Assembly (NCBI GenBank): GCA_001794055.1
Contig: MGJB01000006.1
Location: forward strand, 90,168-154,167
DNA length: 64,000 nt
Reading direction: 5' to 3'
Source of the DNA: Candidatus Yanofskybacteria bacterium RIFCSPHIGHO2_01_FULL_41_26
GTDB lineage: Bacteria > Patescibacteriota > Minisyncoccia > 2-02-FULL-40-12 > GWA2-44-9
The translations under genes and the position numbers were made by a program. The notes under the pieces are model-generated. The model made no database searches. It had not been told where the DNA came from and was given only the letters and a program-made list of their open reading frames with translations. Numbering within the stretch: position 1 is the first letter of the stretch; each line of letters starts with the position of its first letter. Positions 7,661-54,181 of this stretch are shown here, piece by piece.

Positions 7661-8799
7661 TTTAACAAATTTTGAAGTTTTTCAGCGTAATCTTTTATTG
7701 TCGCTTTCTTTTCAAATTGTCCCACTATCTCCAGACCGCCTTGGCTATATTTTTGATACAAATCAGGGCTATTCAGCAGCTCTATTGCCTTGTGGGCTAT
7801 ATAATTAGCCTCCCAAGCCACAATCTCGCCCTCCAAGCCGTTTTTAAGCAAATCAGGCACTATTCCAACTGGGGTTGCCAGAACCGGCACCCCACAGGCC
7901 ATAGCCTCAACCACGACCCGAGGACCACCTTCATTAAAAGACGACATCACAAGAATCTTTGATTGATTAAGCAATTTGGCAACTTCTTGAGAATCCTTGG
8001 CCCAACCATAAAGTAAGACGTTATCTTGCAATTTCCAATTTTCAATTTTCGACTCACAATAATTTTTAAGTGACCCGTCTCCAACTATAAGAATTCTTAA
8101 TTTAAAACCTTGAACTTTGAGTTTTTTTGCCGCTTCTATTAATAGAACGATTCCCTTGTTGGGCTCTAATCGGCCGATGAAAATTAAATCATATTCTTTA
8201 GGCAAATTCATCGGCTTGAACATGTTCAAATCTATATATATTGACGGAATATAAGTAATTTTATTTTCAGGCACTCCGGCTTTCACTAAAAATTCGAGGG
8301 TTTGTTTTTGATTGACGACCCTGACCGCTGTTGCTTTTGAAGCATCAAACTTTATCAACCACCCCATTAAAATCCGATAGACGCTTTCTTTTGGGTTTGC
8401 CGCTTTTGGGTATCCGGAAATGTGGTGGATCTCAAGAACATAAGGAACTTTAGTTTTAAGCCACAATAATCTTGCTCCGATCCCATTATAAAAAGGTGGG
8501 AATTCGTGCACGATCATCAGGTCGAATTTCTGCTCTTTATAGATTTCCATCCCTTTCTTCAGAAACCAAAATGGATGAAGAATCAATGGCCAAGGTGAAA
8601 TGTGAACATAAACATTCCCAAACAGAGGTTCAGCCTTGGGGAGATTTGAGATTGAACCTATGTAAGTTTTAGGTGAAATGATATCAATCCTATCCCAATA
8701 TTTATGGAACTCTTCCAGAGTATTATAAAATGCCCCTTTTTTGCCGGAGGCCAAATCTTTCGCGCTACCTAATCCTGTTATCATCAAGAGTTTTGCCAT
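7657..8799 (-). CDS. glycosyltransferase family 1 (GT4)
   Basis: FNEGGPRVVVEAMACGVPVLATPVGIVPDLLKNGLEGEIV motif. Confidence 0.85.
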   Translation of the reverse strand: MAKLLMITGLGSAKDLASGKKGAFYNTLEEFHKYWDRIDIISPKTYIGSISNLPKAEPLFGNVYVHISPWPLILHPFWFLKKGMEIYKEQKFDLMIVHEFPPFYNGIGARLLWLKTKVPYVLEIHHISGYPKAANPKESVYRILMGWLIKFDASKATAVRVVNQKQTLEFLVKAGVPENKITYIPSIYIDLNMFKPMNLPKEYDLIFIGRLEPNKGIVLLIEAAKKLKVQGFKLRILIVGDGSLKNYCESKIENWKLQDNVLLYGWAKDSQEVAKLLNQSKILVMSSFNEGGPRVVVEAMACGVPVLATPVGIVPDLLKNGLEGEIVAWEANYIAHKAIELLNSPDLYQKYSQGGLEIVGQFEKKATIKDYAEKLQNLLK

Positions 8800-8800
8800 A

Positions 8801-9964
8801 TCAATTTATTAACACTCTAATAGTTTCTTCAAACATTTTTTCCGAACTGAAATGCTCTGCCGTTTTTTTTCCTTCTTTCTTGAATTCTTCTCGTAATTCC
8901 AGGTCTTGCCAAAGAGATCTAATGGCCTCAATGAGATTAAACTCATCCTGATATTTAACCATAAAGCCGTTTTCTCCCTGTCTGACAATTTCTTTGTTTC
9001 CTCCCACAGCTGTCGTAATAACAGGCACACCGGCTGTCATAGCTTCCAGTATTTGATGCGAAAAACCTTCATAACCGCTATTGAGAACAAACGTGTCCGC
9101 CGCCGCCAGATAAGTTGCCAGCTCTTCCTGCGATTTTCTACCGACCAGATAAACCTTTCTTTCCAAACCAAGATTTTTGACCATTGATTCCAATATTTTT
9201 TTGTCAGACCCATCACCAACTATAACCAAACGGAAAAGTTGGCTTATATCCGAAAGGCGGGGCATGATCTTAATCAACATGCGAAACCCTTTCCAAGGCA
9301 CCAAACGCCCTGCGGATAATAAAATATCTCCATAAATGCCTACTTTTTTCTTAGCTTCTTCTTGACCGATGTCCGCGCTCTTAAAAGCAACCCCATTGTA
9401 GATGGTTGTAATTTTATCACCCGAAACGCCCCAGCCCCGGACAATTCCGGCCAGATACTTAGAAGGAACAATAATCTCATCGGCACTTTTACAAGCTCGA
9501 ACCTGAACTTTATGCAAAAAGCCTATCCAGCCGGTTTTTTTTGCTTTTTGAAAATCATCTATAAGCAGGTCTGTTTTATTTTTTTCCACTGCCACTTGCC
9601 AGGCATAATCACCGGCTATTCTAAGATAAAACTTCTTTTTAAAAAATCTTGCTCCAATCAAAGATGGAATTGCTCCGCTTAAAGTGCTCAACGAATATAC
9701 GATGTCGCTGTTTTTGCAGGTAAAGAAAACTTTCAAACCAAATGAGGCATGTTTAAAAAACCAAAAATTTTTCTTCCAAACACGTTTCACTTTAAACTGA
9801 TAATTTTTATCTTGCTCATGTTTTCTGACTGATGAGTATGTAATAACTTTAACTTTATAATCTTTTGACAATCTTTGAGCCAAAATTCTGACATACGAAG
9901 CCGGTCCGCCTATATCAGGAGGAAAGATACCTGTCACAATCAAGATGTTTTTTACTTTTTTCAT
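8801..9964 (-). CDS. glycosyltransferase family 1 (GT4)
   Basis: YEGFSHQILEAMTAGVPVITTAVGGNKEIVRQGENGFMV motif. Confidence 0.85.
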   Translation of the reverse strand: MKKVKNILIVTGIFPPDIGGPASYVRILAQRLSKDYKVKVITYSSVRKHEQDKNYQFKVKRVWKKNFWFFKHASFGLKVFFTCKNSDIVYSLSTLSGAIPSLIGARFFKKKFYLRIAGDYAWQVAVEKNKTDLLIDDFQKAKKTGWIGFLHKVQVRACKSADEIIVPSKYLAGIVRGWGVSGDKITTIYNGVAFKSADIGQEEAKKKVGIYGDILLSAGRLVPWKGFRMLIKIMPRLSDISQLFRLVIVGDGSDKKILESMVKNLGLERKVYLVGRKSQEELATYLAAADTFVLNSGYEGFSHQILEAMTAGVPVITTAVGGNKEIVRQGENGFMVKYQDEFNLIEAIRSLWQDLELREEFKKEGKKTAEHFSSEKMFEETIRVLIN

Positions 9965-10728
9965 TTGATAAACAAATTAAATCTAATTATATGCCAGATT
10001 GCCGCCAATCCATCTTTCCAATTTATCTTTTTACCGTCTTGATAAGTCCTGCCGCTATACGAAATTGGCACTTCAATAACTTTAAAATGTAACTTTCCGA
10101 TCCAAGCAGTTAATTCGGGATCAATACCAAATCTTTTGGATTTAAGATGGGGGTAGATTTGGTTTATTGAGTCCTTGGAAAAAACTTTATAGCAAGTGTA
10201 CATATCGGTTAGTTTAACTCCGCTTAAAATATTGGACATCCAGTTTAATGCCTGGCTGAACAGATAGCCACTTTTGTAAATAATTTTGTTTTTCTGTTCT
10301 GGTTTCATAAAACGCGAGCCATAGACAACATCGGCCTTGTTTTCTATTATGGGTGTTATCAGATTAGGGTATTCTTGCGGATTGTACTCAAGATCGGCAT
10401 CTTGAATTAAAATAATATCCCCCGCTGCCTCCTCGAACCCCCTTTTTGTAGCCGCACCTTTACCCATATTCTTATCTAAAAAAACGACATTATACTCCAC
10501 CTGTGGATAACCGACTTGCGAAGTCGGTATGTGGATAAGTTGATTTAGTATCTCTCTAGAGCCATCGGTTGATCCGTCATCAACTAAAATAATTTCTTTC
10601 TTGAGAGGCAAACTAACTGCCTCAACAGCATTGATTAATTTTCGCAAAGTTCTTTCTTCATTATAAACCGGGATAATGATGCTCAATTTTTTACAATCAA
10701 ATTCGTTCATAAATTTTAGCAAATTCAT
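9961..10728 (-). CDS. glycosyltransferase family 2 (dolichyl-phosphate hexose transferase-like)
   Basis: LSIIIPVYNEE...VDDGSTDGS...IQDADLEYNP GT-A DXD signature. Contains a degenerate in-frame REP copy at 10500-10540 encoding HIPTSQVGYPQV. Confidence 0.8.
   Translation of the reverse strand: MNLLKFMNEFDCKKLSIIIPVYNEERTLRKLINAVEAVSLPLKKEIILVDDGSTDGSREILNQLIHIPTSQVGYPQVEYNVVFLDKNMGKGAATKRGFEEAAGDIILIQDADLEYNPQEYPNLITPIIENKADVVYGSRFMKPEQKNKIIYKSGYLFSQALNWMSNILSGVKLTDMYTCYKVFSKDSINQIYPHLKSKRFGIDPELTAWIGKLHFKVIEVPISYSGRTYQDGKKINWKDGLAAIWHIIRFNLFIK
10500..10540. repeat. degenerate REP palindrome copy inside the GT2 CDS
   Basis: cctgtggataaccgacttgcgaagtcggtatgtggataag. The left arm and the stem ccgactt/aagtcgg are identical to the 39-bp REP at 26530, 37799 and 38548. 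The right arm is decayed. Confidence 0.6.
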
Positions 10729-23072: not shown

Positions 23073-24928
23073 TTTTGCAATTCTTTGATAAAACTTTTCA
23101 TCAATTCGCCAGTTTGAGGATCTAACTCGGCGTATTTTAACCCTGTTTGTAAATCTTTTAGGGCTTGGTCTTTATTATTAAGCGCGACATAAACCAGCGC
23201 CGAATTGTAATAAACACGAAGATTATTCGGGAGAAGAAGCTTAAGCTTTTCGATATTTTCAACGGCTTTAGTCAGGTTGCCTTGTTGAGCATATATAACC
23301 GACAAATTTTGATAAGGATAATAGAAGTTGGGATTAATTTCTATCGCTTTTTCGTATAACTTGATTGCTCCGTAAATATCCCCCCTAGATTGCAAAATAG
23401 TGCCTAAATTAAAATGAGGTTCGGCAAATATGTCACCTAGAGAGGCAGCGATTTTATAATATTTCTCGGCATTTTCCATGTCTTTTTTATTGTAATAGAT
23501 ATTTCCCACATTATTATTTATCCTGGAACTGTCCGGTTCATATTTTAGGATGTCAAGATAAAAAGCAAGCTGATTACCCCACAGAAGATTGCGCTGAATT
23601 GATTGATAAGCAAAGAAAGAAAAGTAGGCAACTAATACGGTGATCATCAAGATTCGACAGAGTTTCCAAGGGGTGGAAATCCCACTCCGAGAATTTTGGA
23701 TTTTCAAAAAGGTCGAATCTTTAAAATCCAAAAGTTTAACCAAATAAAAAGAAAAAACGAGCCAAAAACCAACCATTGGCAGATAGAGCCAATGCTCATA
23801 CATTAATGCATTTACCGGTGTAATACCGGAAACAGGTCCAAGAGAAATAAAAAACAACGCCACGCCAAAAAACCAGACCTGAAAAATTGCGGGTCGTAGG
23901 TTGTGAGTTGTGAGTTGACGCTTATACAGATGCCTTAGCCAAATCAATAATCCGATAAGGCCCAAAAAAATCGGCCAAACCGGCCACTGAAACAACGAGG
24001 TGTAGACAACAGCGCCTCTCTCCATGTGAAGACCCGTCGGAACTATCAAAAGTTTTAGATATTCCCACAGTATGGGCAGAAAGGTAAATACTCTGACATA
24101 TAGATTTTCAGAATAAATATTAGGTTCAGCGTAAAAATTAAGGGTATTCTGAAAATTTAAAACCGTAAGCCTCAAAATTCCATAAACGACAACTACTGCA
24201 AAATAAGGCCAAATTTTAATTAGGCCATGTTTTACGGATTTCAAAAATCGTTCTTTTGAGATAAAAGAAATATAAAAAGCGACAGCCAAAAACGGGAAAA
24301 TTATCGCAGTTTCCCGACTTAAAAGAGCCAAGACCAGAAAAACTAAGGACAGCACTCTATTCAAGGTTAAACCTTGTATCCTTCCAAGGTTTAACCTTGG
24401 AGTAGTTTCTGATCGATAGAACAAAATCAATGTCGCCAACATGAATGTCGTCACCAAAGCGTCTCCCCTGCCCGATATGTAGGTTATTGCCTCCGTTTGC
24501 AAAGGATGAATCAAAAATATCAAAGAAGTTAAAAATGCCACTGCCAAAGTTCGACCCTTTGAAATCCCAAGGTCAAACTTTTTTAACAATAAGAAAATTA
24601 AAATACCATTGGCCACATGAATCAAATTGCTCAGTAAATGATAGCTTAGCGGTTTAATACCTGAAATTATATAATTTAAAGCAAACGTAAAAAATAAAAA
24701 AGGTCTGTAATAATTACTTTTCAAGCCCACTCCCGCAAGAGTATTATGGGTAAGCCAGAATTTAATATTATCCCAGCTTATTGTGTGGACAAAATTATTT
24801 CTTATTATCCAATCCTCATCATCCCAAAACAACTGGTTATTCAAATTAAATGAGTAAATAAAGCCGCTTATGACGATAAGGACTACGATCGGCAGCCAAA
24901 CTTCTTTTTTTAACAGTAGTTTATTCAT
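23069..24928 (-). CDS. TMTC/DUF1736-like polytopic membrane protein with C-terminal TPR repeats (paralog)
   Basis: First-loop WDDED motif. C-terminal TPRs (NVGNIYYNKKDMENAEKYYKIAASLGD...GAIKLYEKAIEINPN...). Confidence 0.6.
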   Translation of the reverse strand: MNKLLLKKEVWLPIVVLIVISGFIYSFNLNNQLFWDDEDWIIRNNFVHTISWDNIKFWLTHNTLAGVGLKSNYYRPFLFFTFALNYIISGIKPLSYHLLSNLIHVANGILIFLLLKKFDLGISKGRTLAVAFLTSLIFLIHPLQTEAITYISGRGDALVTTFMLATLILFYRSETTPRLNLGRIQGLTLNRVLSLVFLVLALLSRETAIIFPFLAVAFYISFISKERFLKSVKHGLIKIWPYFAVVVVYGILRLTVLNFQNTLNFYAEPNIYSENLYVRVFTFLPILWEYLKLLIVPTGLHMERGAVVYTSLFQWPVWPIFLGLIGLLIWLRHLYKRQLTTHNLRPAIFQVWFFGVALFFISLGPVSGITPVNALMYEHWLYLPMVGFWLVFSFYLVKLLDFKDSTFLKIQNSRSGISTPWKLCRILMITVLVAYFSFFAYQSIQRNLLWGNQLAFYLDILKYEPDSSRINNNVGNIYYNKKDMENAEKYYKIAASLGDIFAEPHFNLGTILQSRGDIYGAIKLYEKAIEINPNFYYPYQNLSVIYAQQGNLTKAVENIEKLKLLLPNNLRVYYNSALVYVALNNKDQALKDLQTGLKYAELDPQTGELMKSFIKELQK

Positions 24929-26948
24929 TGAAATATTTACTTAAAAAATCTTTTGCCTGCGTATTGTTTTTATCCAATCTCACAGCTTCTTTGAAAAAGG
25001 CCTGGGCGTTTTCAAGCCGGCTTAAGTTCATATAAACCACTCCCAAAATAAAATAATATTGACTCTCTTTCAAGCCTAAATCAATCGCCATTTTTATATT
25101 TTCCGCCCCCAATTGCTGATTTTGTTTATCCGAGTAAGAAACGTGAATAAATCCTTTGTGGAGATAAGGATATGGATTTTTGGGATCAATTTTTATAACT
25201 TCATCGGCAAAATAAGCCGATGCTTCCAGCCAATCAATTTTAAACAAAACGCGTGACAAAATAAGATTTAGGTCGGCCTTGTTTTTATTTGAGTTTTTTA
25301 TATTAGCAGATATTTTATCTATGGCATTTTTATCAATAATGGAAAATTTAGAAATAACCCCGGTGTTTTTACTATTATTCTTAAGCAGAATGATTGCATC
25401 TTCGTTAATATAAACAATTTTCCAGTCCAGGTTTTTGGCAATATTTCTTAAAAAATTATCGGCCCAAGGCGTAACATCATTATATCCAAAAAATATGAAG
25501 TTGATGCCATATTTCCCTGAAAATTCAAGCCACTTTTTCTTATCCTCTTGCATCGGCTTATATGTCTCGCTAAAAAACTCAACCGAATATGCTTCTGGCC
25601 TGTTGTCAACAAAAACTTTCTCTTGGGGGTACAGCTGCCATATCAAATATCCTCCAATATCAAAATTATTAAACATTGGTCCTTTGATATTGTTTTGTTT
25701 GACAAAATCAACAGCTCTTTCCAGTCCATTCGGAACAGAAAAACCGGATACCCTGGAAACTCCCATATACCTGTAATATGTATTATTTGCCACAAAAAAA
25801 ATAAGCAAAATAATCAACGCGGAAAACAGAACTTTAAAAAAACTGCTCAATCTTTTAACTTGAGGTTTAACTTCAAGTTTATAGAGATTAAACCTCTGTA
25901 GAACATCTGCCAGTAGGATCGCCAATATCGGGAAAGACGCAAGCGCGTACAACGGCAAATTGCGTAACATCCTGAATCCAGCATACACAAAAAATGCCAT
26001 AGTAAGTATTTCAAAGACCCTTTGTTTCGATTTTTTTGCGGTCAGTATCAAAGAAATAACTAAAAGTACCACCGAAAGTTTAAAAATAAAAACCGGCAAA
26101 AGAAAACCTCTAAGGTTGGCCAGAAAAGAAAGGGTTTGATTCTCAACTATGTTGTATCCGTACTCGTTCAGCACTTTAAAGGGCAAAAGTGCACCTTGAA
26201 TTCCGTTCGGATTTATAAGTGTTGCCAAGCTGGTTAGTGATCCAATCAACACTATTCTGATAAGGTCCGACCTTTTAGAAACAAGCCGGTCTATGAGAAA
26301 TGCTAACAACAGAAATGGTCCGATAAAAAAATAAATGTGCAAATTTACCCAAAACAATTCCAAAATCGGCAAAAACCAGAGAAAAAAATAATTTTTTTCA
26401 TATTTTGCCTTTAATATAGCAAACAAGAAAAATGACAAAATGACGAAACTGAATATCTCCGGTCGGACTTCCGTTCGCTGGATAAATATGAACATTGAGA
26501 GAAGGAAAGATACTAAAAGAGACCAGAAACCTGTGGATAACCGACTTCGCAAGTCGGTTATCCACAGGTGTTTTATAGTAAAAAATAGTAACAAAAACGC
26601 AATCAGTACCAAGGCGGTTTTAACAAGAGTTAATCCGATAAATCCAAAGTAACTGAAAATACCAAAAAATATTACCTCGCTTAACCAGTGATGGTTGATA
26701 AAAGGGAAATCCGGCTCGGTAAAAGAAAATAAATTTGTCTTTGGAACCTCTTTTGTCTGCCAAATAATCTCGCCAACCTTAAGATGCCGACCGATATCTT
26801 GGCCGATAGTGTCAAAGTTGTGAATCAAAAAACTCCCCAAAAGTACAAAAATGAGAACAAATAAATAGTTTTTCTTAAGGAAGTACAACAATGGTTTTAC
26901 CATCGCATTGTTTTTCAAAAAGTTTGACATAGCCCCCTTCAGTAACAA
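24921..26948 (-). CDS. polytopic membrane protein with C-terminal TPR repeats (third paralog-like member of the array)
   Basis: Multi-TM N-terminal region. C-terminal TPR-like repeats (YFILGVVYMNLSRLENAQAFFKEAVRLDKNN). Contains an in-frame intact 39-bp REP (26530-26568) encoding HLWITDLRSRLST. Confidence 0.55.
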   Translation of the reverse strand: MLLKGAMSNFLKNNAMVKPLLYFLKKNYLFVLIFVLLGSFLIHNFDTIGQDIGRHLKVGEIIWQTKEVPKTNLFSFTEPDFPFINHHWLSEVIFFGIFSYFGFIGLTLVKTALVLIAFLLLFFTIKHLWITDLRSRLSTGFWSLLVSFLLSMFIFIQRTEVRPEIFSFVILSFFLFAILKAKYEKNYFFLWFLPILELFWVNLHIYFFIGPFLLLAFLIDRLVSKRSDLIRIVLIGSLTSLATLINPNGIQGALLPFKVLNEYGYNIVENQTLSFLANLRGFLLPVFIFKLSVVLLVISLILTAKKSKQRVFEILTMAFFVYAGFRMLRNLPLYALASFPILAILLADVLQRFNLYKLEVKPQVKRLSSFFKVLFSALIILLIFFVANNTYYRYMGVSRVSGFSVPNGLERAVDFVKQNNIKGPMFNNFDIGGYLIWQLYPQEKVFVDNRPEAYSVEFFSETYKPMQEDKKKWLEFSGKYGINFIFFGYNDVTPWADNFLRNIAKNLDWKIVYINEDAIILLKNNSKNTGVISKFSIIDKNAIDKISANIKNSNKNKADLNLILSRVLFKIDWLEASAYFADEVIKIDPKNPYPYLHKGFIHVSYSDKQNQQLGAENIKMAIDLGLKESQYYFILGVVYMNLSRLENAQAFFKEAVRLDKNNTQAKDFLSKYFNE
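26530..26568. repeat. REP palindrome (39 bp, perfect) inserted in-frame in a CDS
   Basis: cctgtggataaccgacttcgcaagtcggttatccacagg. Same sequence as the RAYT-flanking copies. Confidence 0.85.
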
Positions 26949-32583: not shown

Positions 32584-33160
32584 TTTAATTTTTTAATAAC
32601 TGAACTGGTGCCGTCGCTCTGACATATCTATATTTTTAAATTTCGATATGTCGAGTCAACCAACGCCAGAACAGGTTTTTAATAACACTAATTAACTGAA
32701 CTGACCGACCACAATATTTCTAAAGTCCACCTATTTCGACCTGGCAAATTTTAGAAGTGGTTTACAACTTTAAAACTTAATTTCATTTCTAATCTAAGCA
32801 TCAATTTTTTCTTGCTGTCCTGATTGTCAATGTCCTTTCATTGGACTGCCTGCCTCTATAGATATTTCGATATGTCTATCTACGATGTCAATATTTCGAA
32901 ATATCACTAAAGGCAGAAAGTCCGATATCTACTCAAAAAACGACCTGAAATTAGATCGATTACGAATCTTTTAATTCTTTAATTCTTCATATTTAATGCC
33001 GTTTAACGGCCAGTATTGTCCGCCAATACTACACAAAATACATTTGACAGTCAATGGTGACAAACCATGACTTCATAATAAGTATAAAGGTTATAATAAG
33101 GCCTGCAAGGGGTCAAGTGTGGATAAATCAGGCCATATTTTGGCGTAAAATCAAGGTTTA

Positions 33161-36100
33161 TTATTTGATACTCATTACCTTGCTGCCATACCCCCAAATA
33201 ACCCTATTTTCACTTAAAACCGGGGATATAACCGAGCTTACTCCCGTTGAAATGTGCCATCTCTCATTGCCGTCCTTATCAACGCCATAAACATCTCCCG
33301 ACTGGGTAGAGAAATAGGCACCGCCGTCTTTGTCTACTGCTATCTGTTGGTTTATTTTACCTTCGGCCTGGAATGACCAACTAACCGTAAGGTCAGATTT
33401 ATTAAGCGAGAAAAGTTTTGAACCGGAAGCAGGATTTGACCAGCTGTAATCTAAACCGACAAGAAGATTGGTCGGGGTAATTGAAACCATTGTTGCCCCC
33501 GAACCATTGCTGGCCGGTTCAATAACAGTCGTATTCAAAACAGAACCGTCAGGTGGAATGACGAACATTCTAAACCCGAAAGAAGAACCCCCATCATAAC
33601 CGATAGCCGAATAAGTCTTGCCTGTTGATTTGTCATGTGACGGATTCGACTGCATACTGCCATTGGCGCCGGTATAAGCCAAATCCCAAATTTTTGAGCC
33701 ATCAGACAAATATTTTGTAAAAAATTGATTACCGCTTATCCGTCTTGCCACAACACTATCGCCATTTTCAAGAACAATCGGAACAAAACCACTCAGGCCA
33801 GGATTACTGGCTTGGGTCTTTGTTGAGCCGCCTGTATTTAACACGACAAGCTTGTCGTTGCCGCTTGAATAGGTAAAATATGGTTCACCTTTTTCGGATA
33901 CAGTAAAAGCTTTGATCGTACTTGCATCATCATAATCCCATTTCTTGGTTCCGTCGGAATTAAGAGCCGTAAAAGCCAAAACTCCGCCAGCTCCGATACG
34001 GCCAAAATACACCACACCATCAGATAAGATTGCCGGGGTGCCAATACTGACATTGGTGGCGTATTCCCATTTTTGTACGCCATTTTTATCAAGTTTTATT
34101 AATTTTCCGGAACCGTTGGCCGAGCCGAAATAAATACCTCCGTCAGCTGAAACAACCGGCTGACCTACAGTATTTCCGGCTCCGGCATCAAATTCCCAGC
34201 TTATTGTTGCCCCAACACCCGGCCCCGCCAAACTAGCCGCAAAAGACGTGTGATATTGGTCTTTACCGAGCATAGACCAAGCCCCGTCGTCTATCGCGGA
34301 TGGGAAACTCACCTCGGCTATATTAGAAATATCTGAACACTTATCCACAGTTTCCCCATTACCGACTTCGCAAGTCGGTATGTTGATAACTTTTGTTTTC
34401 AGGGCAAAATAAAGTGTCTGGCCATAGTCATGGGCAATATCGGGAGTTACGATTTGCGATTCTCCCTCATTTCCGACGCTAGGCAAACTAGAGCTGGCTA
34501 CTTTTATTGCTAAATCCCAACTGGCGGAAGAAGGGAAACCGGTGAGCGAATATCGCAAATCGTAACTCAAACTGGCCGGACTGTAACCGCCTGGGTCGGG
34601 CGCCGACCATGAAATGGTAAGCGGTGAGTTGATGGTGGCCAATAAGTTGGTAACGGCTGATGGAGCTTGAGTTATAACATCAGCGCTATTCTGGGATTTA
34701 GGAGTTGATGTGGCGGTAATCCATCCGCCATCCATCCGTTGGGCAGTTTTTTTAGTGTCATTGTTGCCAATAATTTCGTCATTGCCGTTTATTTTCCACG
34801 CATTTGAACCATCAACTTGGTCAATTACAGTTCCGGAAATGTCTTTCAAAACTAAATTTTCTCCCGTATTGCCTAAAGCGCCGGTGTATATTTGGTCGGC
34901 ATCAATATCAGGCAACGTTTGATCATCGGTCCTTTCTAAGACATAAAAGCCAAACGGACTTATATTGCCAATCAGTGTTATGTCTGGCGTACCGTCTTTT
35001 GACTTAAGATTCCAATTGTTAAGATTTATGGTTTTGTTGGTGATGTTACGAAGTTCTATCCACTCATCGTTCGATAATGACGCTGAGGTTCCCATCCAAG
35101 CAATTTCGTTTAGGACAATGTCACCAAGATTGGCAGTGTCACCATCGGGTTCTGGTGACGGGATGGGTGACGGTGACGGCGATTGTGACGGAGTGGGAGT
35201 AGGAGTTGCTTGCGGTGAGCTTGTCGAATCCGGTGTCGAAGATGACCCGCCTCCTCCGCCGCCATATGAAACAATAACCTGAACCGCTGTGCTGTTTTTG
35301 GCTTTAGGCGTTCCGTTTATCAACCCGCCGGTTGCATCTTTATTTGTTGATGTCCCGGAAAAACTTTTCCAATTTGAGGCGCTATTACCGGCTTTCATCG
35401 AATCTATTCTCTCCATTGAATTCTTTGATGTTGAGTCACCGAAATACCATGCTTCACCCGTGCCACCAACCACATCTACCACAATGCCAATGCTATCAAA
35501 CAGTCTGATCATTTCGCCTGCATTGTTAAGGCCTCCTTGGCCAAAACCTGCAGCCAAATCAGCTGTTATATCGCTTACGGTATTATCATCTGTCCTCTCA
35601 ATTAAAAAATAGGAATTCGCTTGAATAATTGTCCCTTCCGAGAAAATAATATCAGGGGAATCATCGCTTGAAACCAACCGCCAACTGGATATGTCTATTG
35701 GGTTGTTTTCGGTGTTATAAAGCTCAATCCATTCATCTGTTGCAGAGGCATCCGTCCCCGCCCAGGCAATCTCGTTTATGACCACTGTGCCGAATTTCTT
35801 TGCTGTGGATAATTTTGGGATAGGAGATGGGGTTGGGGTAGTTGACAGCTTCGGTGTCGGTGCTGGTGTTTTTGATGGTGACAGAATAGGTGACACAAGA
35901 GGTGACACTATTGTGACACTGGTGACAGGTGTCTTTGTCACCAGTGGTGACGGTGACACTACTTGATTTGTCACCTTCGGTGTTGGTGTCACCATGTTGT
36001 CACCATCATTTGAGTTATCCACAATGTCATTATCGGTGCTAATTCCTATTAACCCCAGCAATCTTGCAAACCAGTTTTTCTCTAGCGGTTTATTGGCATA

Positions 36101-37075
36101 TTCTTGTTTTGCTTTCTCCGCTTCTGTTAAAAACAAGTTCAACGCCCCAGAGCCGTTAAGAACTACCTCTCTTGATAATCGGTCCCAATAGCCATCGAGG
36201 ATATCCTCACTCGATATTGTTAGTTCACCAGTTTTAATGATATTTTTAACTAATACATAATTACCACTCTTGTCTTTTTTATACCCTACTAAATCCTCCT
36301 CTCCTTTTTGATTTTTCTTATAAATCCAAAAATCTATTGTTGGGTTTGCATAGTTACTATCATTAATCGTATCTTTACTAAAAAAATTCCCATTTGAATA
36401 CTTGGCTATTTTATCAAAATATTCGCCCAGATTAGCAAGAATCACGGGCTTCAATCCTTCTTTTTTAAATTTAGAAGCAACATTAAAGTTATCAGGACTC
36501 CATTTCGCCATTTCATGTTCATACGGACTGCCGAATGTTCCTACCGGCGGATGGGGATCATTTCGAGTGTGGTCGGGAACTCCCATATCTTCCAATAAGT
36601 GCAGAAGGTGACCAAATGCAAGCATGGCTCTTTGTCTGTCTCCTTGAGCATAATCATTCATTGCTCGTTCATAAGAAAAGTCATCTGGACTTTTAATTAC
36701 CCCCGCTGATTGAGCAATACTATTGTTGGACATGGCAAGATTTGATTGAGCGCCAGAACTCATCGCCCACTGTTTGGATGTAGGGAATCCGGCCATACCA
36801 ATATTGTGAACTGGGTCATAGAAATGATTCATCGGCCTCATACCTTGGTCTTCATCCATGGAACCCTGAATTATCCAAGTTTTATCTTGATTATTTAACT
36901 TTTGAGAAAAGTTAAGATTATAAAAATCAACAATCTCGTCGGTTAACGCCGGGTGAGTATGCGGCTGGTCGTAAGCCGATGCTTTGGTAATGAAAAAGGC
37001 GCCAATAAGCGCCCCTCCTACTATTAAGTTTTTGATTCGTTTATGCCTCATAACTGGCTGATTTTCCATATCCAT
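33161..37075 (-). CDS. multidomain secreted protein: Zn-dependent phospholipase-C-like domain + 2 lamin-tail (LTD) domains + PQQ-like beta-propeller
   Basis: Signal/TM. MNHFYDP and HLLHLLEDMGVPDH motifs (Zn_dep_PLPC-like). Two INEIAW.GT.AS..DEWIEL.N LTD motifs separated by Pro/Thr/Ser linkers. C-terminal GG.YFG...G.L..LD.NG..KW repeats (PQQ/BamB-like). Degenerate REP inside at 34351-34400. Confidence 0.65.
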   Translation of the reverse strand: MDMENQPVMRHKRIKNLIVGGALIGAFFITKASAYDQPHTHPALTDEIVDFYNLNFSQKLNNQDKTWIIQGSMDEDQGMRPMNHFYDPVHNIGMAGFPTSKQWAMSSGAQSNLAMSNNSIAQSAGVIKSPDDFSYERAMNDYAQGDRQRAMLAFGHLLHLLEDMGVPDHTRNDPHPPVGTFGSPYEHEMAKWSPDNFNVASKFKKEGLKPVILANLGEYFDKIAKYSNGNFFSKDTINDSNYANPTIDFWIYKKNQKGEEDLVGYKKDKSGNYVLVKNIIKTGELTISSEDILDGYWDRLSREVVLNGSGALNLFLTEAEKAKQEYANKPLEKNWFARLLGLIGISTDNDIVDNSNDGDNMVTPTPKVTNQVVSPSPLVTKTPVTSVTIVSPLVSPILSPSKTPAPTPKLSTTPTPSPIPKLSTAKKFGTVVINEIAWAGTDASATDEWIELYNTENNPIDISSWRLVSSDDSPDIIFSEGTIIQANSYFLIERTDDNTVSDITADLAAGFGQGGLNNAGEMIRLFDSIGIVVDVVGGTGEAWYFGDSTSKNSMERIDSMKAGNSASNWKSFSGTSTNKDATGGLINGTPKAKNSTAVQVIVSYGGGGGGSSSTPDSTSSPQATPTPTPSQSPSPSPIPSPEPDGDTANLGDIVLNEIAWMGTSASLSNDEWIELRNITNKTINLNNWNLKSKDGTPDITLIGNISPFGFYVLERTDDQTLPDIDADQIYTGALGNTGENLVLKDISGTVIDQVDGSNAWKINGNDEIIGNNDTKKTAQRMDGGWITATSTPKSQNSADVITQAPSAVTNLLATINSPLTISWSAPDPGGYSPASLSYDLRYSLTGFPSSASWDLAIKVASSSLPSVGNEGESQIVTPDIAHDYGQTLYFALKTKVINIPTCEVGNGETVDKCSDISNIAEVSFPSAIDDGAWSMLGKDQYHTSFAASLAGPGVGATISWEFDAGAGNTVGQPVVSADGGIYFGSANGSGKLIKLDKNGVQKWEYATNVSIGTPAILSDGVVYFGRIGAGGVLAFTALNSDGTKKWDYDDASTIKAFTVSEKGEPYFTYSSGNDKLVVLNTGGSTKTQASNPGLSGFVPIVLENGDSVVARRISGNQFFTKYLSDGSKIWDLAYTGANGSMQSNPSHDKSTGKTYSAIGYDGGSSFGFRMFVIPPDGSVLNTTVIEPASNGSGATMVSITPTNLLVGLDYSWSNPASGSKLFSLNKSDLTVSWSFQAEGKINQQIAVDKDGGAYFSTQSGDVYGVDKDGNERWHISTGVSSVISPVLSENRVIWGYGSKVMSIK
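34351..34400. repeat. degenerate REP palindrome copy inside a CDS
   Basis: ttatccacag...accgacttcgcaagtcggtatgttgataac. The stem and loop are identical to the REP family. Encodes INIPTCEVGNG in-frame. Confidence 0.55.
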
Positions 37076-37798: not shown

Positions 37799-37837
37799 CC
37801 TGTGGATAACCGACTTGCGAAGTCGGTTATCCACAGG
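37799..37837. repeat. REP palindrome (39 bp, perfect), left flank of RAYT
   Basis: cctgtggataaccgacttgcgaagtcggttatccacagg. The loop is inverted relative to the right-flank copy. Confidence 0.9.
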
Positions 37838-37861: not shown

Positions 37862-38536
37862 ATGGCAACTGAACAAAATTTTTACCACACGCTAAATAGG
37901 GGTGTCGAAAAACGTAATATATTCCTAGATAAGCAGGACCATTTTCGTTTTATTCACAATTTATATGAACTCAATAATGAAGATAGGGTTGATACCACCT
38001 TTCATTCTTTTAAAGAAGATCCGAATCTTACCGACTTCGCAAATCGGAAACAAAGAAAAATATTGGTAGACATTCTTGCGTTTTGTTTAATGCCAAATCA
38101 TTATCACCTGCTTCTTTCACCAAAAATAGAGGGTGGGGTTCCTAAGTTTATGAATAAGATAAACATTGGCTACGCAAAATATTTTAATAAAAAATATAAG
38201 AGAGTTGGAGCGTTGTTTCAAGGAAGATATAAAAAAATATTAATAGCAGATAATACTCACTTTCTCCACCTTCCTTTTTATATCCATTTCAATCCGCTTG
38301 ATTTAAAATATCCTGAATGGAGAGAAAATAGAATATTAAATGCTGAAAAAGCTTTAGGGTTTTTAAAATCCTATCGTTGGAGCAGCCATTTAGACTATTT
38401 GGGTGTTAAAAATTTTCCGTCGATTATAAATAATGGCTTACTTACAGAAATTTTTGACGGAAGTAAGGGTTACGAAAAACTGATTAATAATTACCTAAAA
38501 GATATTCAAATAGATCCAGAGGTTGCGTTAGAATAA
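37862..38536 (+). CDS. REP-associated tyrosine transposase (RAYT; IS200/IS605-like Y1 HUH transposase)
   Basis: HUH motif LMPNHYHLL. C-terminal ALFQGRYKKILIADNTHFLHLPFYIHFNP matches the RAYT W/FQxR(Y)...IRDE..L.....YIH.NP block with the catalytic Tyr. The ORF-track start (37802) lies inside the REP palindrome, so the start is placed at MATEQNF. Confidence 0.8.
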   Translation: MATEQNFYHTLNRGVEKRNIFLDKQDHFRFIHNLYELNNEDRVDTTFHSFKEDPNLTDFANRKQRKILVDILAFCLMPNHYHLLLSPKIEGGVPKFMNKINIGYAKYFNKKYKRVGALFQGRYKKILIADNTHFLHLPFYIHFNPLDLKYPEWRENRILNAEKALGFLKSYRWSSHLDYLGVKNFPSIINNGLLTEIFDGSKGYEKLINNYLKDIQIDPEVALE

Positions 38537-38547
38537 AGAATGGTAAC

Positions 38548-38586
38548 CCTGTGGATAACCGACTTCGCAAGTCGGTTATCCACAGG
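38548..38586. repeat. REP palindrome (39 bp, perfect), right flank of RAYT
   Basis: cctgtggataaccgacttcgcaagtcggttatccacagg. Confidence 0.9.
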
Positions 38587-41860: not shown

Positions 41861-42129
41861 GAGCTAACGCTATGGATATTTCTCAGTCGCGATACCGGCA
41901 AATTGCGAGTGGCACAAGAAGCAACAACGAAGGTGTACTCATTGTACTCCGAGGAGGAGCGACGCAGTGTCCACTCGCAATTTGCCTTATCCCTCCTGGT
42001 TCTAGCTATTTTGTCCTATCGCTGCGTTACTTCTCGTCGCTGTAGTACCAACTACAACTTCCTTGAAGTGCCTGGCGCTAAGACAAAATAGCTAAGAACG
42101 CGACTGAGAAATATCCATAGCATTAGCTC
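41861..42129. mobile_element. MITE-like element (269 bp) with 31-bp terminal inverted repeats and nested internal inverted repeats
   Basis: Left TIR gagctaacgctatggatatttctcagtcgcg (41861-41891). Right TIR is its reverse complement with 1 mismatch (42099-42129). Internal ggcaaattgcgagtgg/ccactcgcaatttgcc pair. The right TIR encodes the last 10 codons (NAMDISQSRS*) of the GH1 gene. Confidence 0.55.
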
Positions 42130-43315
42130 TACATATTTTAGCATATTCAAAAGCCGAAGGACGAATTTTTCTGGCAAATGTCGCATAATCAATCTCAACT
42201 AATCCGAAACGCGGTCTAAAACCATATGCCCACTCGAAATTATCCAAAAGCGACCAGTATAAGTACCCTCGGATATCAACGCCGTCATGAATGGCCTGCC
42301 AAACCCATTTTAGATGTTCTTTTATAAATTTTCCACGCCGTTCGTCCTTGCTATCAGCAACTCCATTCTCGGTGATAAAAATAGGTTTTTTATACTTTTT
42401 AAGCTCCATGAGACGATGGTAAATACCTTTGGGATAGACGTCCCAATTCATTTCTGAGACAAAATCGACCCGCCGCAGTTCACGGGTGCCCGGCAAGCGC
42501 ACGGTCGTATAGTAATTTAAACCTATAAAATCCTGGTAGGGAAGAGTCTTATTCCAAAAGTATAAATTTACGAACTGATCCAAAAACTTTACTATTCCCT
42601 TGAACACCGGATGACTCATAATGTGTAAATTATTTTCAACTCCCCCAACGAGTGGTTCTATATTGTGCGACGTTGAATCATACAATCCTTGGTTTTTCGG
42701 TGAAACATCATAAACCCTCTTTATTTCCTGATAGGCGAGTGTATGCGACCGAACTATATTATTCCGAACCTTGATTGCTTTGAAAATATTATGTTTTTGC
42801 GGCGGCCATTGTCCTTTTAAATATGAGCCTCCGGCGTATATCCAAGGCTCATTAAAAGTTATCCACAGCCCTACTCTATCTTTTAAATTATCCACAACAT
42901 ACTTTACATATCTTGTAAATATTGTCGGACTATCAATGTTTAGGAATCCTCCTTTTTCGGCGAACCAGACGGGGTTAGTGAAATGCCAGAGAGTTATCAT
43001 CGGCTCAATCCCCCTCTCCTTCAAGGCCTTGACGACATTGACATAGTGATGCATAGCTTCATGGTCAAATATCCCCTCCTTCGGTTCTATGCGGGACCAC
43101 TCAATAGAGAAGCGGTGAATATTTTGATTTAAACTCTTAGCAATATCAAAATCTTCCTCGTAACGGTTGTAACTATCGCAGGCCTTTCCTGAACGAAATT
43201 CGGGCGGACGAGATTTCTCCCATTCGGACCAGTCATTGTAATTGTCTCCTTCTATCTGGTGGGCCGATGTGGTGCTCCCCCACTTGAATCCTTCAGGGAA
43301 TTGCATGTAAGACAT
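42092..43315 (-). CDS. GH1 beta-glucosidase/beta-galactosidase
   Basis: TFNEPW (acid/base) and ITENGVA (nucleophile) family-1 glycoside hydrolase motifs. Roughly 400 aa. Confidence 0.85.
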   Translation of the reverse strand: MSYMQFPEGFKWGSTTSAHQIEGDNYNDWSEWEKSRPPEFRSGKACDSYNRYEEDFDIAKSLNQNIHRFSIEWSRIEPKEGIFDHEAMHHYVNVVKALKERGIEPMITLWHFTNPVWFAEKGGFLNIDSPTIFTRYVKYVVDNLKDRVGLWITFNEPWIYAGGSYLKGQWPPQKHNIFKAIKVRNNIVRSHTLAYQEIKRVYDVSPKNQGLYDSTSHNIEPLVGGVENNLHIMSHPVFKGIVKFLDQFVNLYFWNKTLPYQDFIGLNYYTTVRLPGTRELRRVDFVSEMNWDVYPKGIYHRLMELKKYKKPIFITENGVADSKDERRGKFIKEHLKWVWQAIHDGVDIRGYLYWSLLDNFEWAYGFRPRFGLVEIDYATFARKIRPSAFEYAKICRANAMDISQSRS

Positions 43316-51609: not shown

Positions 51610-53610
51610 TTACAAAAACCTTGCTATAAGCAGCGCCACAATGTTGGCCACCTTAATCATTGGATTGATGGCTGGGCCGGCGGTATCTTTGTAAGGGTCG
51701 CCTACCGTATCTCCTGTTACAGCCGCCTTGTGAGCATCGGATCCTTTTCCACCATAGTTTCCGTCTTCAATATATTTTTTGGCGTTGTCCCAAGCCGCAC
51801 CACCCGATGTCATTGAAATCGCAACAAACAATCCAGTAACAATCACGCCGACGAGCAATCCCCCAAGCGCCTCAGGGCCAAGAATAAATCCAACAAGCAC
51901 AGGAATAAGTATCGGTATTAAAGCCGGCAATATCATCTCCCTCAATGCGGCCTTGGTCACAATATCAACCGCAGTCGAATAATCAGGTTTTGCTGTTCCT
52001 TGCATAATTCCAGCTATCTCCCTGAACTGTCTTCGTACCTCATCAACAACTGCTCCCGCTGCTTTTCCAACAGATTGCATGGCAAGCGAACCAAACAAGT
52101 AAGGCATCATTCCTCCGATAAATAATCCAATGAGCACTCTGATGTCGGAAAGTTCAAAAACTACAATTCTTCCAAATTCAGAAAGTTCCTGCGTGTATGC
52201 CGCAAACAAAACCATTGCCGCGAGTCCCGCCGAAGCAATAGCATATCCTTTTGTGACAGCTTTAGTTGTATTTCCAACAGCATCAAGTGTGTCAGTGTGT
52301 TCACGAACTTCCTTCGGTAATCCCGCCATCTCGGCGATACCGCCGGCGTTGTCGGTAATCGGACCAAACGAGTCAATCGCCAAAATAAGACCGGTTAAAG
52401 AAAGCATGCTCATCGTTGCTAATGCAATTCCATATAATCCCGTCAATGAATAAGCGAGGAACATTGCCCCGGCAATTACAATTACAGGTAACGTGGTTGA
52501 TTCCATTGAGACGGCTAGTCCAGCAATAATGTTTGTGCCGTGTCCGGTCGTTGAGGCCTTGGCAATCTTTTTAACAGGGCTGAATTTTTTAGAAGTATAA
52601 TAATCCGTCACTAAAACCATAAGAGCCGTAACCGCGATACCAATTAATAAGGACGAAAACAATCCTCCATTGCTAATTCCACTTACGACAGTATTTCTGG
52701 TGACCCAATAAAATAATCCGACAAGAATAATTGCAGTAGCGCCAAGGCCCTTATAAAGAGCATTCATAATGCCACCAGCTTGCCCTGAGGAATTCGAAGG
52801 AGTGAGACGCACAAACAAAGAACCGATAATTGATGCAAAAACTCCTAGTGCTCCGATGAATAATGGAAATTCAACCACAGAGGTTGAACCTCCGTAAAGT
52901 AAACTACCGAGCAGCATTACCGATAAAGCCGAAACAACATAAGTTTCAAAAACATCGGCCGCCATGCCAGCACAATCGCTGACATTATCCCCCACCTGAT
53001 CGGCAATAACTGCTGGATTCCTGGGATCATCTTCGGGAATTCCGGCTTCAACTTTTCCGACAAGGTCGGCTCCGACATCAGCGCCTTTGGTAAATATTCC
53101 ACCTCCGAGACGAGCAAATACAGAAATTAAAGAAGCGCCAAAACCCAAACCAATAAGTGACTTCACATCACCACTCCACCAATAAAAAACTGTGAGCGAC
53201 AACAGAGCCAAACCAACAACAAAAAATCCGGTAACAGCACCGCCCTTAAAACCCATATCAAAAGCTCGAGCCAAACCATGTTTAGCTTCTTCAGCCACAC
53301 GGCCATTAGCCCTGACCGCAATCATCATTCCGATATATCCAGCTAAAGCAGATGAAACTGCACCAACAATAAATCCCGCTGCGAGTGTAAAACCAAGCCA
53401 TTTCCATAGTATTAAAACAGCAACCACTCCGACAAAAAAGACTGTTCTGTTTTGTCTTTTTAAATAAGCTGAAGCCCCTTCCTGAATGGCTTTTTGGATG
53501 GAGACCATTTTTTCATCCCCAGCCGACTTCTTGAGCACTCCCCAAATCAAAAACGCGCCATATCCCAGCGACGCCACCGACGCTAACAATGAAAGTAGTA
53601 ATGTATTCAT
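51610..53610 (-). CDS. hppA: membrane-bound proton-translocating pyrophosphatase (K+-independent type)
   Basis: [20 protein letters not shown]...[22 protein letters not shown]-PPase signatures. The GNTTKA motif (Lys rather than Ala) is the established marker of K+-independent enzymes. Confidence 0.9.
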
Positions 53611-53656: not shown

Positions 53657-53706
53657 AATACAATGGGGGTCTTTGTATAAATGTATACAAAGACCCCCAT
53701 TGTATT
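53657..53706 (-). terminator. 23-bp perfect hairpin (likely terminator of 53801..54181)
   Basis: aatacaatgggggtctttgtata-aatg-tatacaaagacccccattgtatt. A T-rich run follows on the minus strand. Also lies in the hppA upstream region. Confidence 0.45.
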
Positions 53707-53800: not shown

Positions 53801-54181
53801 CTATTCCAATTCTGCCAGCCTTTTCTGTAAATTCTCTATTTCTCTTAATGTACTTTCCGTTCCTTGCCATCTAGCCCTACCGGCAACAATCGTGAGCTCA
53901 TCTATTCTGGCCTTAAGAATCTTTTTCTCGTTACGACCACATTGCAAACCAAAACAAAAAGCTTTGGCCAAATTAGATGGAGTAAAAGGATCTTTGGTAA
54001 AAGATAAAAGATGTTCGATATTTTGAGAATACTCTTCGTTAGCCTTAAATGTTTCTAATATTTCCCAATAGTAATTGAAGCTGTCCCTACTTCCATTGGC
54101 TTGCCATAAATCTTCAAAGCTTCTATACAAACCACAACGAATATCGTTAGAAATCTTACTTTTCAATACAATAAATAACAT
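53801..54181 (-). CDS. hypothetical protein
   Basis: 126-aa ORF. No recognisable motif. Confidence 0.35.
   Translation of the reverse strand: MLFIVLKSKISNDIRCGLYRSFEDLWQANGSRDSFNYYWEILETFKANEEYSQNIEHLLSFTKDPFTPSNLAKAFCFGLQCGRNEKKILKARIDELTIVAGRARWQGTESTLREIENLQKRLAELE

Follow-up and report, generated by a model that had tools for sequence, protein, structure and literature searches.

A direct-box form of a REP-like hairpin repeat embedded in frame in a glycosyltransferase gene of Candidatus Yanofskybacteria: probably an intact isoform rather than a decaying relic

Within a 64-kb stretch of a Candidatus Yanofskybacteria genome from the Rifle aquifer (a source assigned by 100% protein matches), which we call the window, a gene for a family-2 glycosyltransferase (GT2) contains an in-frame 40-bp member of a family of repetitive extragenic palindromic (REP) sequences. 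An earlier note had taken this element for a degenerate REP copy, an old insertion with a decayed right arm and partial amelioration. The gene and the parts of the element are as follows.

9961-10728, minus strand: gene for the family-2 glycosyltransferase, 255 aa (Pfam Glycos_transf_2, PF00535, E 8.8e-33).
10500-10539, no strand: direct-box REP isoform in the GT2 gene, codons L64 to V77 in the minus-strand reading; plus-strand layout CC-TGTGGATAA-CCGACTTgcgAAGTCGG-TA-TGTGGATAA-G.
10502-10510, minus strand: Box 1, TTATCCACA, the downstream arm in the coding sense, encoding Y-P-Q.
10510-10528, no strand: core hairpin ACCGACTT-GCG-AAGTCGGT, with an 8-bp stem and a 3-nt loop.
10530-10538, minus strand: Box 2, TTATCCACA, the upstream arm in the coding sense, encoding L-I-H and standing in for the canonical arm.

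The sequence at 10500-10539, cctgtggataaccgacttgcgaagtcggtatgtggataag, is identical to the one quoted in the earlier note. Its coding strand, cTT ATC CAC Ata CCG ACT TCG CAA GTC GGT TAT CCA CAG Gtg, has the layout TTATCCACA-TA-hairpin core-TTATCCACAGG and specifies the peptide L64-I-H-I-P-T-S-Q-V-G-Y-P-Q-V77 (LIHIPTSQVGYPQV); EILNQLIHIPTSQVGYPQVEYNVVFLDK is an example of a peptide that would span a junction. The canonical REP of this genome is a perfect 39-bp palindrome, CCTGTGGATAACCGACTT-SSS-AAGTCGGTTATCCACAGG (SSS being GCG or CGC), whose 18-bp stem and 3-nt loop fold as single-stranded DNA at -22.1 kcal/mol (z -11.5). The first 29 of the 40 bases of the GT2 element, comprising left arm, stem and loop, match this palindrome exactly, and the 29-mer occurs at four places in the window, with 0.00 expected from 100 shuffles; the similarity is thus neither confined to the stem nor below chance. 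Left arm, stem and loop are retained as the earlier note had claimed, except that the inner stem (ACCGACTT/AAGTCGGT) has 8 rather than 7 bp. As single-stranded DNA, the 51-nt stretch 10495-10545 folds at -9.1 kcal/mol (z -4.2) into a structure that includes this stem. The right arm lacks complementarity to the left one and consists of a further perfect TGTGGATAA 9-mer, in direct orientation. The window contains 14 instances of this 9-mer, the box of the family, where 0.49 would be expected, a 28-fold over-representation.

Is this second box the product of decay, or does it define a form of its own? The same architecture recurs at other loci. The locus L131, in another genome, holds a copy (cTTATCCACAcaCCGACTTCGCAAGTCGGTTATCCACAGG) that is identical at 39 of 40 positions, lies in the same frame and reads LIHTPTSQVGYPQV. 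We considered L131 as an orthologue of the window gene and rejected it; the gene there is another member of the GT2 family, its flanks are unrelated, and for this reason it provides independent evidence for the isoform. In L123 and L067, TTATCAACAta-core-TTATCCACAGG lies between genes, upstream of one for a DEAD-box helicase. (These two loci had also been candidates for orthologues of a second in-frame copy in the window, at the 34351 site; they were dismissed, as the flanks share no similarity and L123 is intergenic.) In L159, an element with two direct boxes and a variant core, spaced as in the GT2 inserts of the orthologues P0010 and P0012, lies 3' of a transposase gene. Because this architecture recurs in L131, L123 and L159, we conclude that 10500-10539 is probably an intact copy of a recurrent direct-box isoform rather than a decaying relic. 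The decayed right arm of the earlier note is therefore not borne out, the arm being a perfect second box in a 40-mer almost identical to the L131 copy.

The membership of the element in the REP family is upheld by the exact 29-mer and by a Y1/HUH transposase gene lying between two perfect copies, which anchors the family. The window holds three canonical, two variant and one core-only REP copies. The copies outside the GT2 gene and the transposase gene, which resembles RAYTs (tyrosine transposases associated with REPs), are listed here; ORF denotes an open reading frame.

26530-26568, no strand: canonical REP, in frame (HLWITDLRSRLSTG) in a 675-aa membrane/TPR ORF (24921-26948, minus strand).
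34341-34390, no strand: REP remnant with both boxes flipped, plus spacer, in frame (VINIPTCEVGNGETVDK) in a 1304-aa ORF (33161-37075, minus strand).
37799-37837, no strand: canonical REP immediately 5' of the RAYT gene.
37862-38536, plus strand: RAYT-like Y1/HUH transposase, 224 aa from ATG (Pfam, HUH motif and fold match).
38030-38047, no strand: REP core hairpin with 1 mismatch, inside the RAYT coding sequence (NLTDFANRK).
38548-38586, no strand: canonical REP directly 3' of the RAYT gene, where two genes converge.

The host protein carries the GT-A motifs DD.S.D, N.GKG and a D-x-D-type DAD (D110-A111-D112); D50, D51, S53, D55, N87, G89, K90, G91, D110 and D112 are invariant across 34 GT2 orthologues. 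It was compared with its 120 closest orthologues (60-82% identity, mostly Yanofskybacteria), of which 119 could be scored. The linker between DD.S.D and N.GKG measures 19-21 aa in 82 of the 119 (e.g. ILKTMGGRHKVIF) versus 31 aa in the window protein, so that the element brings a net gain of 11 residues (31-aa versus 20-aa linker). Relative to about two thirds of its orthologues the gene thus has an insertion, which bears out the in-frame embedding proposed in the earlier note. The identical protein is found on 14 contigs in JGI and ENA, and an assembly artefact is thereby excluded. An AlphaFold model built on the orthologue alignment has an overall predicted local distance difference test (pLDDT) score of 81.8, with 70-78 in the insert and more than 90 around it. 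In this model of a GT-A fold the segment is predicted to form the end of a helix (57-65) and a coil (66-76) before a strand (77-83), that is, the connection between alpha2 and beta3. In Rossmann-like folds the alpha-to-beta loops lie opposite the ligand site. Since these loops face away from the ligand side, the insert should, by topology, be distal from the nucleotide-sugar site.

What occupies this loop in other lineages? Inserts are present in 37 of the 119 scored orthologues and are of at least three kinds.

Type B insert, GT2 loop: direct boxes, reading LIH..PT.QVGYPQV or ITTFSVVNPQV; about 15 orthologues.
Type C insert, GT2 loop: canonical palindrome in frame c, VDNRLAKSVIHR; 8 orthologues.
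Type G insert, GT2 loop: unrelated palindrome TGTGGAGGGCgGCCCTCCACA; 12 orthologues.

In the DNA of nine orthologous type B copies, 93% of the cells of the 8-bp stem are paired, and three stem pairs have changed on both sides (e.g. C:G to A:T). Slid controls with the partner shifted by 1-3 columns gave 15-40% paired, and the covariation score was matched by only 2 of 500 shuffles. A type C copy in P0033 sits at the same loop in another frame with a compensated stem, ATCGACTT/AAGTCGAT. The box itself is conserved in at least four GT2 lineages, and the insertion site is common to lineages of 71-82% protein identity; orthologues without an insert have no box at this position. When the 119 orthologues are ordered by neighbor-joining, those with inserts are interleaved with those without, in a weak tree. 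Genuine point decay is found in P0007 and P0008 (CCAACA..GTCGG, TTATTCACA, TTATCCGCC). Two further forms were seen in this loop. In P0016 (L175, 1001-1783) box and hairpin are duplicated in tandem (TTATCCACA-ga-CCGACattcaatGTCGG-tcaagg, twice), giving a 38-aa linker. The type G palindrome (e.g. L170 10001-10771, P0039) encodes ISKSVEGGPPH/Q and has only its TGTGG...CCACA ends in common with the REP.

The companion copy that the earlier note placed at 34351-34400 is real and sits at 34341-34390. It is shared with the L133 orthologue, where about 45 REP-derived bases are 100% conserved save for a 9-nt indel, while the flanks are about 75-80% identical (by eye) and the proteins 73.6% identical. 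The sites at 10500 and 34351 are common to orthologues of 71-74% protein identity, in agreement with the claim that these are older insertions. The partial amelioration inferred in the earlier note found no support: judged from the alignments, the conservation of the hairpin runs opposite to amelioration, the GT2 stem being kept with compensatory changes and the 34351 remnant fully conserved.

Why does the GT2 gene carry the direct-box form? The canonical palindrome offers only three frames: a, LWITD(F/L)(A/R)SRLST; c, PVDNRL(A/R)KSVIHR; and b, which runs CC TGT GGA TAA into a stop. The direct-box isoform in the GT2 orientation is open in all three frames. The GT2 gene reads frame b, and therefore only the isoform with the flipped upstream box is compatible with it. 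The 1304-aa ORF also reads frame b, and in both genes the stop-bearing upstream arm is replaced (ATC MAC ATA CCG ACT). In the gene for tRNA-guanine transglycosylase (TGT), one site carries the canonical REP in frame c (L128, L135) and a frame b element without the upstream arm (L157). Stop avoidance explains compatibility in frame b, not the origin of the isoform; as an origin it is only partly tenable, as the isoform is also found at intergenic and RAYT-flanking sites.

The transposase ORF matches Pfam Y1_Tnp with E 5.3e-10 and 39.9 bits (gathering score 23). Its sole NCBIfam match is the equivalog REP_Tyr_transpos (NF047646; E 5e-11, 42.7 bits, below the curated cut-off of 80). Across 30 homologues, H80 and H82 of the NHYH motif are invariant and Y123 of QGRYK is conserved in at least 90%. 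The pLDDT of its AlphaFold model is only 67.9; a Foldseek search with this model returned TnpA of IS200/IS608/ISDra2 for all of the top 30 PDB matches, plus the RAYT 4ER8 (E 2.7e-5), and phmmer against PDB sequences gave only marginal matches (E 0.3). Yanofskybacteria widely carry homologues of at least 60% identity. L021 and the window are syntenic; in L021 the REP at 38548-38586 is 100% conserved between flanks only about 75% identical. The REP-RAYT-REP layout is also present in the metagenome contigs L116 and L148; the two flanks of the RAYT gene differ in L159, with a canonical REP to one side and the direct-box isoform to the other. Given the transposase evidence and the recurring repeat-transposase-repeat layout, the names REP for the repeat and RAYT-type transposase for the gene are justified.

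Around the L159 gene, the element at 8759-8808 consists of a canonical REP with one more box in tandem behind it (TTATCCACAGG-TTATCCACAGa), and that at 9521-9570 has direct boxes, a different core (ACGACAttgaaTGTCGT) and an 11-nt spacer, the architecture of the P0010 and P0012 inserts. The core hairpin inside the window RAYT gene is perfect in the L159 homologue (9299-9315), and NLTDFA(N/S)RK resembles REP frame a; this hairpin may be a remnant REP insertion or a self-recognition site.

A first scan of genome contigs with the core alone (16 specified bases) was unspecific, most of its 110 matches arising by chance in unrelated phyla. Boxes beside the core were seen only in L021, L054, L063, L067 (one Patescibacteria metagenome-assembled genome) and L110; the Yanofskybacteria contig L061 had a core match only. 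The 20-kb loci of other GT2 genomes offered too short a sequence for further copies with the type-2 core, with 0-3 boxes per locus, and only the L159 RAYT flank was informative. A metagenome scan with the core plus one box yielded 52 loci, all from groundwater (Hainich, Rifle). Counting distinct copies in these loci, the window and five genome-scan loci gave 54, of which 25 (46%) are intragenic, defined as lying at least 40 aa inside an ORF of at least 150 aa. Among the canonical copies 17 of 37 are intragenic, 15 in frame c and two in frame a; such a bias speaks for selection acting on the peptide, which would therefore be translated. The Pfam-confirmed hosts are genuine and in many cases essential genes; they include alanyl-tRNA synthetase (AlaRS), ComEC, TGT (two sites), an RNase J-like beta-CASP nuclease, MnmA (two sites), UvrC, SecA, RecR, methylpurine glycosylase (MPG), TsaE and O-antigen-ligase-like proteins (Wzy_C). 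Junction peptides predicted for AlaRS, SecA and TGT would contain ...PVDNRLAKSVIHR...; absence of the insert from orthologues was checked for GT2 and the 675-aa protein, and loop placement was modelled for GT2. In the 675-aa protein the REP segment is missing from most orthologues, a few read ITDIASRLSTG, and some bear unrelated long inserts in the same loop.

How might such copies arise and persist? By analogy with IS200/IS605 and the E. coli RAYT, the transposase would recognise the hairpin in single-stranded DNA and disperse copies. Copies landing in coding regions would survive only if the frame stays open and the site is a permissive surface loop. On this reading the GT2 insertion is old within the clade, its hairpin kept by compensatory substitution or by homogenisation against the other copies of the genome.

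Several points weigh against the reading of 10500-10539 as a maintained isoform copy within a mobile REP family. Nine related sequences underlie the covariation, few of its events are independent, and one of the nine supplied the structure that was tested. On the GT2 tree, the patchiness of the inserts fits repeated gain and repeated loss alike. The stop-avoidance argument is partly circular, as only open copies can be scored as intragenic, and the isoform stands at an intergenic site too, hence it was not created by selection against the stop; nor can the canonical palindrome reach the isoform by a few point changes. The RAYT score lies below the NCBIfam equivalog cut-off, and the 39-mer (CCTGTGGATAACCGACTTSSSAAGTCGGTTATCCACAGG) has no GTAG/CTAC or CGTC/GACG tag of the kind that marks known REPs. 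Mobilisation of these repeats by this RAYT is presumed from the analogy with known systems, and translation of the GT2 segment and its tolerance by the enzyme are presumed too.

That a canonical palindromic REP was inserted long ago and its right arm then drifted randomly, leaving a dying relic, is consistent with the non-complementary right arm, which lets only the inner 8-bp stem fold, with the real point decay of the same insert in P0007 and P0008, and with an insertion site shared by such divergent lineages. We nevertheless consider it very improbable: the unpaired arm is a 9/9 copy of the family box in the other orientation, into which a canonical arm is not convertible by few substitutions; the near-identical L131 copy and the intergenic and RAYT-flanking examples share the architecture; and the core is 17/17 identical to that of the genome's active family, with a stem kept by compensatory changes. 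For a coincidental or convergent resemblance of a variable loop, or an assembly chimera, there is a vanishingly small chance. The GT2 loop is indeed hypervariable among orthologues, yet an exact 29-mer plus a second exact 9-mer stands against an expectation of 0.00, other orthologues hold the canonical REP in the same loop in another frame with a compensated stem (P0033), and the protein is identical in independent assemblies on 14 contigs.

It is possible, if unlikely, that the element is kept as a cis-acting DNA or RNA site, which would be compatible with an intact isoform copy. Candidates are paired DnaA boxes for binding or titration of the initiator, a docking site for the RAYT, or a hairpin in the mRNA modulating translation or stability of the glycosyltransferase operon. 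The arm 9-mer TTATCCACA is identical to the consensus high-affinity DnaA box, with a perfect match to TTATNCACA, and its over-representation in the window favours such a role. So do the retention of boxes around the core in several orientations and spacings, the 100% conservation of REP segments where flanks are about 75% identical together with the covarying hairpin, and the conservation in at least four GT2 lineages of a box containing the codons ATC and CAC, presumably non-preferred at about 38% GC. Against it, about two thirds of GT2 orthologues lack the insert, which is hence not needed for the gene; Pfam finds no DnaA_C-like domain in the RAYT C-terminus; two extra boxes in the window are native codons of a GH1 gene, one of them in the catalytic motif LWITFNEP; and gene conversion among copies could instead account for the conservation. 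A bolder proposal, which we hold to be quite unlikely, is that the boxes are both dispersed, maintained initiator-binding sites for titration or fork targeting and conserved break-and-join points for the exchange of hairpin cassettes, a domesticated HUH transposase coupling replication control with the continual remodelling of surface loops in essential proteins. If true, exchange of cassettes would account for the finding that, from species to species, one and the same protein loop has identical boxes but different cores between them.

How does the family compare with known systems? REPs are extragenic by definition. As in the REPtrons, the E. coli TnpA-REP system (4ER8) and the Pseudomonas REPINs, a short palindrome is dispersed and a single Y1/HUH gene, vertically conserved, syntenic and matching the IS200/IS608/RAYT fold, is flanked by copies. 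Unlike those systems, the untagged 39-mer has an unusually long perfect 18-bp stem, the outer 9 bp of which are identical to a DnaA box, there is a second isoform with direct boxes, about 46% of copies are intragenic and in frame rather than predominantly extragenic, the RAYT falls under the equivalog cut-off, and the host belongs to the Patescibacteria lineage of the candidate phyla radiation (CPR). To our knowledge, Rickettsia is the main known case of palindromic repeats that have colonised genes in frame on a large scale. The GTAG/CGTC tags are as defined by Di Nocera et al. 2013 (PMC3733652), whose intragenic GTAG/CGTC REPs are precedents for in-frame insertion, together with the Rickettsia palindromic elements (RPEs; Ogata et al. 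2000, reviewed in PMC10969869). In both precedents, as seemingly here, in-frame palindromes in unrelated housekeeping genes are translated as extra peptides that the fold can accommodate; genes of replication and repair figure among those hit (uvrA and uvrB in earlier reports, UvrC and RecR here), and one gene can be struck at several sites. RPE-1, in contrast, measures about 100-150 bp against 39-40 bp (13 residues) here, the present repeat flanks a transposase gene, and its host is a free-living or episymbiotic groundwater CPR bacterium rather than an obligate intracellular alpha-proteobacterium. Size and host phylum make homology to the RPEs unlikely.

MITEs, the miniature inverted-repeat transposable elements, are likewise small, non-autonomous repeats that end in terminal inverted repeats (in the canonical form here, the boxes) and can produce in-frame fusions. 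Unlike MITEs, the element shows no demonstrable target-site duplication in the aligned contexts, has no parental DDE-type insertion sequence, and is a hairpin such as single-strand HUH transposases use. In the isoform, the direct boxes imitate a target duplication, yet uninserted orthologues have no box at the site. With the DnaA-box clusters of oriC, datA and DARS the family shares paired perfect TTATCCACA 9-mers in variable orientation at 26-40 bp spacing; unlike there, the boxes are dispersed, mostly intragenic, flank a conserved hairpin and are linked to a transposase. Neither a GC-skew switch nor a dnaA gene is present in the 64-kb window. The DnaA-box consensus is given as TT[AT]TNCACA (PMC6006769), and Quentin et al. 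2018 described RAYTs with a DnaA_C-like domain whose flanking repeats are unlike DnaA boxes. Here it is the other way round, with arms identical to the DnaA-box consensus and no detectable DnaA_C-like domain in the RAYT. Such a domain at its C-terminus, an idea taken from PMC6006769, was rejected after a Pfam search gave zero matches even at E up to 10. A full-text literature search turned up no publication that treats REP/RAYT biology in CPR/Patescibacteria or Parcubacteria, nor one that connects REP arms with DnaA boxes.

Candidatus Yanofskybacteria thus appear to harbor a RAYT-linked REP family with nearly half of its sampled copies inside the reading frames, presumably translated, of housekeeping proteins. 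Its frame rules, stop-avoiding isoform and stems that stay paired inside coding DNA make it a tractable model for how a selfish hairpin can become protein sequence. It accounts for some of the unusual variation in loop length among CPR proteins, a variation that can lead alignments, orthology assignment and structure prediction astray. The match of the arm to the DnaA-box consensus offers a testable lead to a possible link between REP/RAYT and replication. Intragenic REPs are also a possible source of assembly collapse inside genes. In the TGT gene of L138, a single REP (near 1223-1261) joins about residue 128 (frame c) to about residue 269 (frame a); this junction is either a REP-to-REP deletion making a pseudogene or an assembler collapse of two intragenic REPs.

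Some minor observations concern the boxes and the neighbourhood. The REP at 26530-26568 falls between transmembrane segments of the 675-aa membrane/TPR protein. In the 1304-aa LTD/beta-propeller protein, inverted solo boxes at 36015-36023 (plus strand) and 35804-35812 (minus strand) bracket a Pro/Thr/Ser-rich linker, the former being conserved in the L133 orthologue and the latter not; another solo box, at 33118, lies just downstream of the gene. The TTATCCACA boxes at 42859-42867 and 42888-42896, 29 nt apart, encode YVVDNL and the catalytic LWITFNEP of the GH1 ORF (42092-43315, minus strand). We considered them as another insertion and rejected this, the codons being native and the alignment to the L021 orthologue gapless. 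The window ORF list contains no ORF of the right size and position for a counterpart of the 23S_rRNA_IVP (PF05635) genes, its ORFs not having been Pfam-searched for this; such genes recur in the otherwise syntenic glycosyltransferase clusters of related genomes (L114 3247-3606, L171 7300-7725, L175 1822-2175, L170 13249-13419). Finally, a 23-bp perfect inverted repeat with a 4-nt loop (AATACAATGGGGGTCTTTGTATA) at 53657-53706, between the ORFs 51610-53610 and 53801-54181, belongs to a different hairpin family and may be a terminator.

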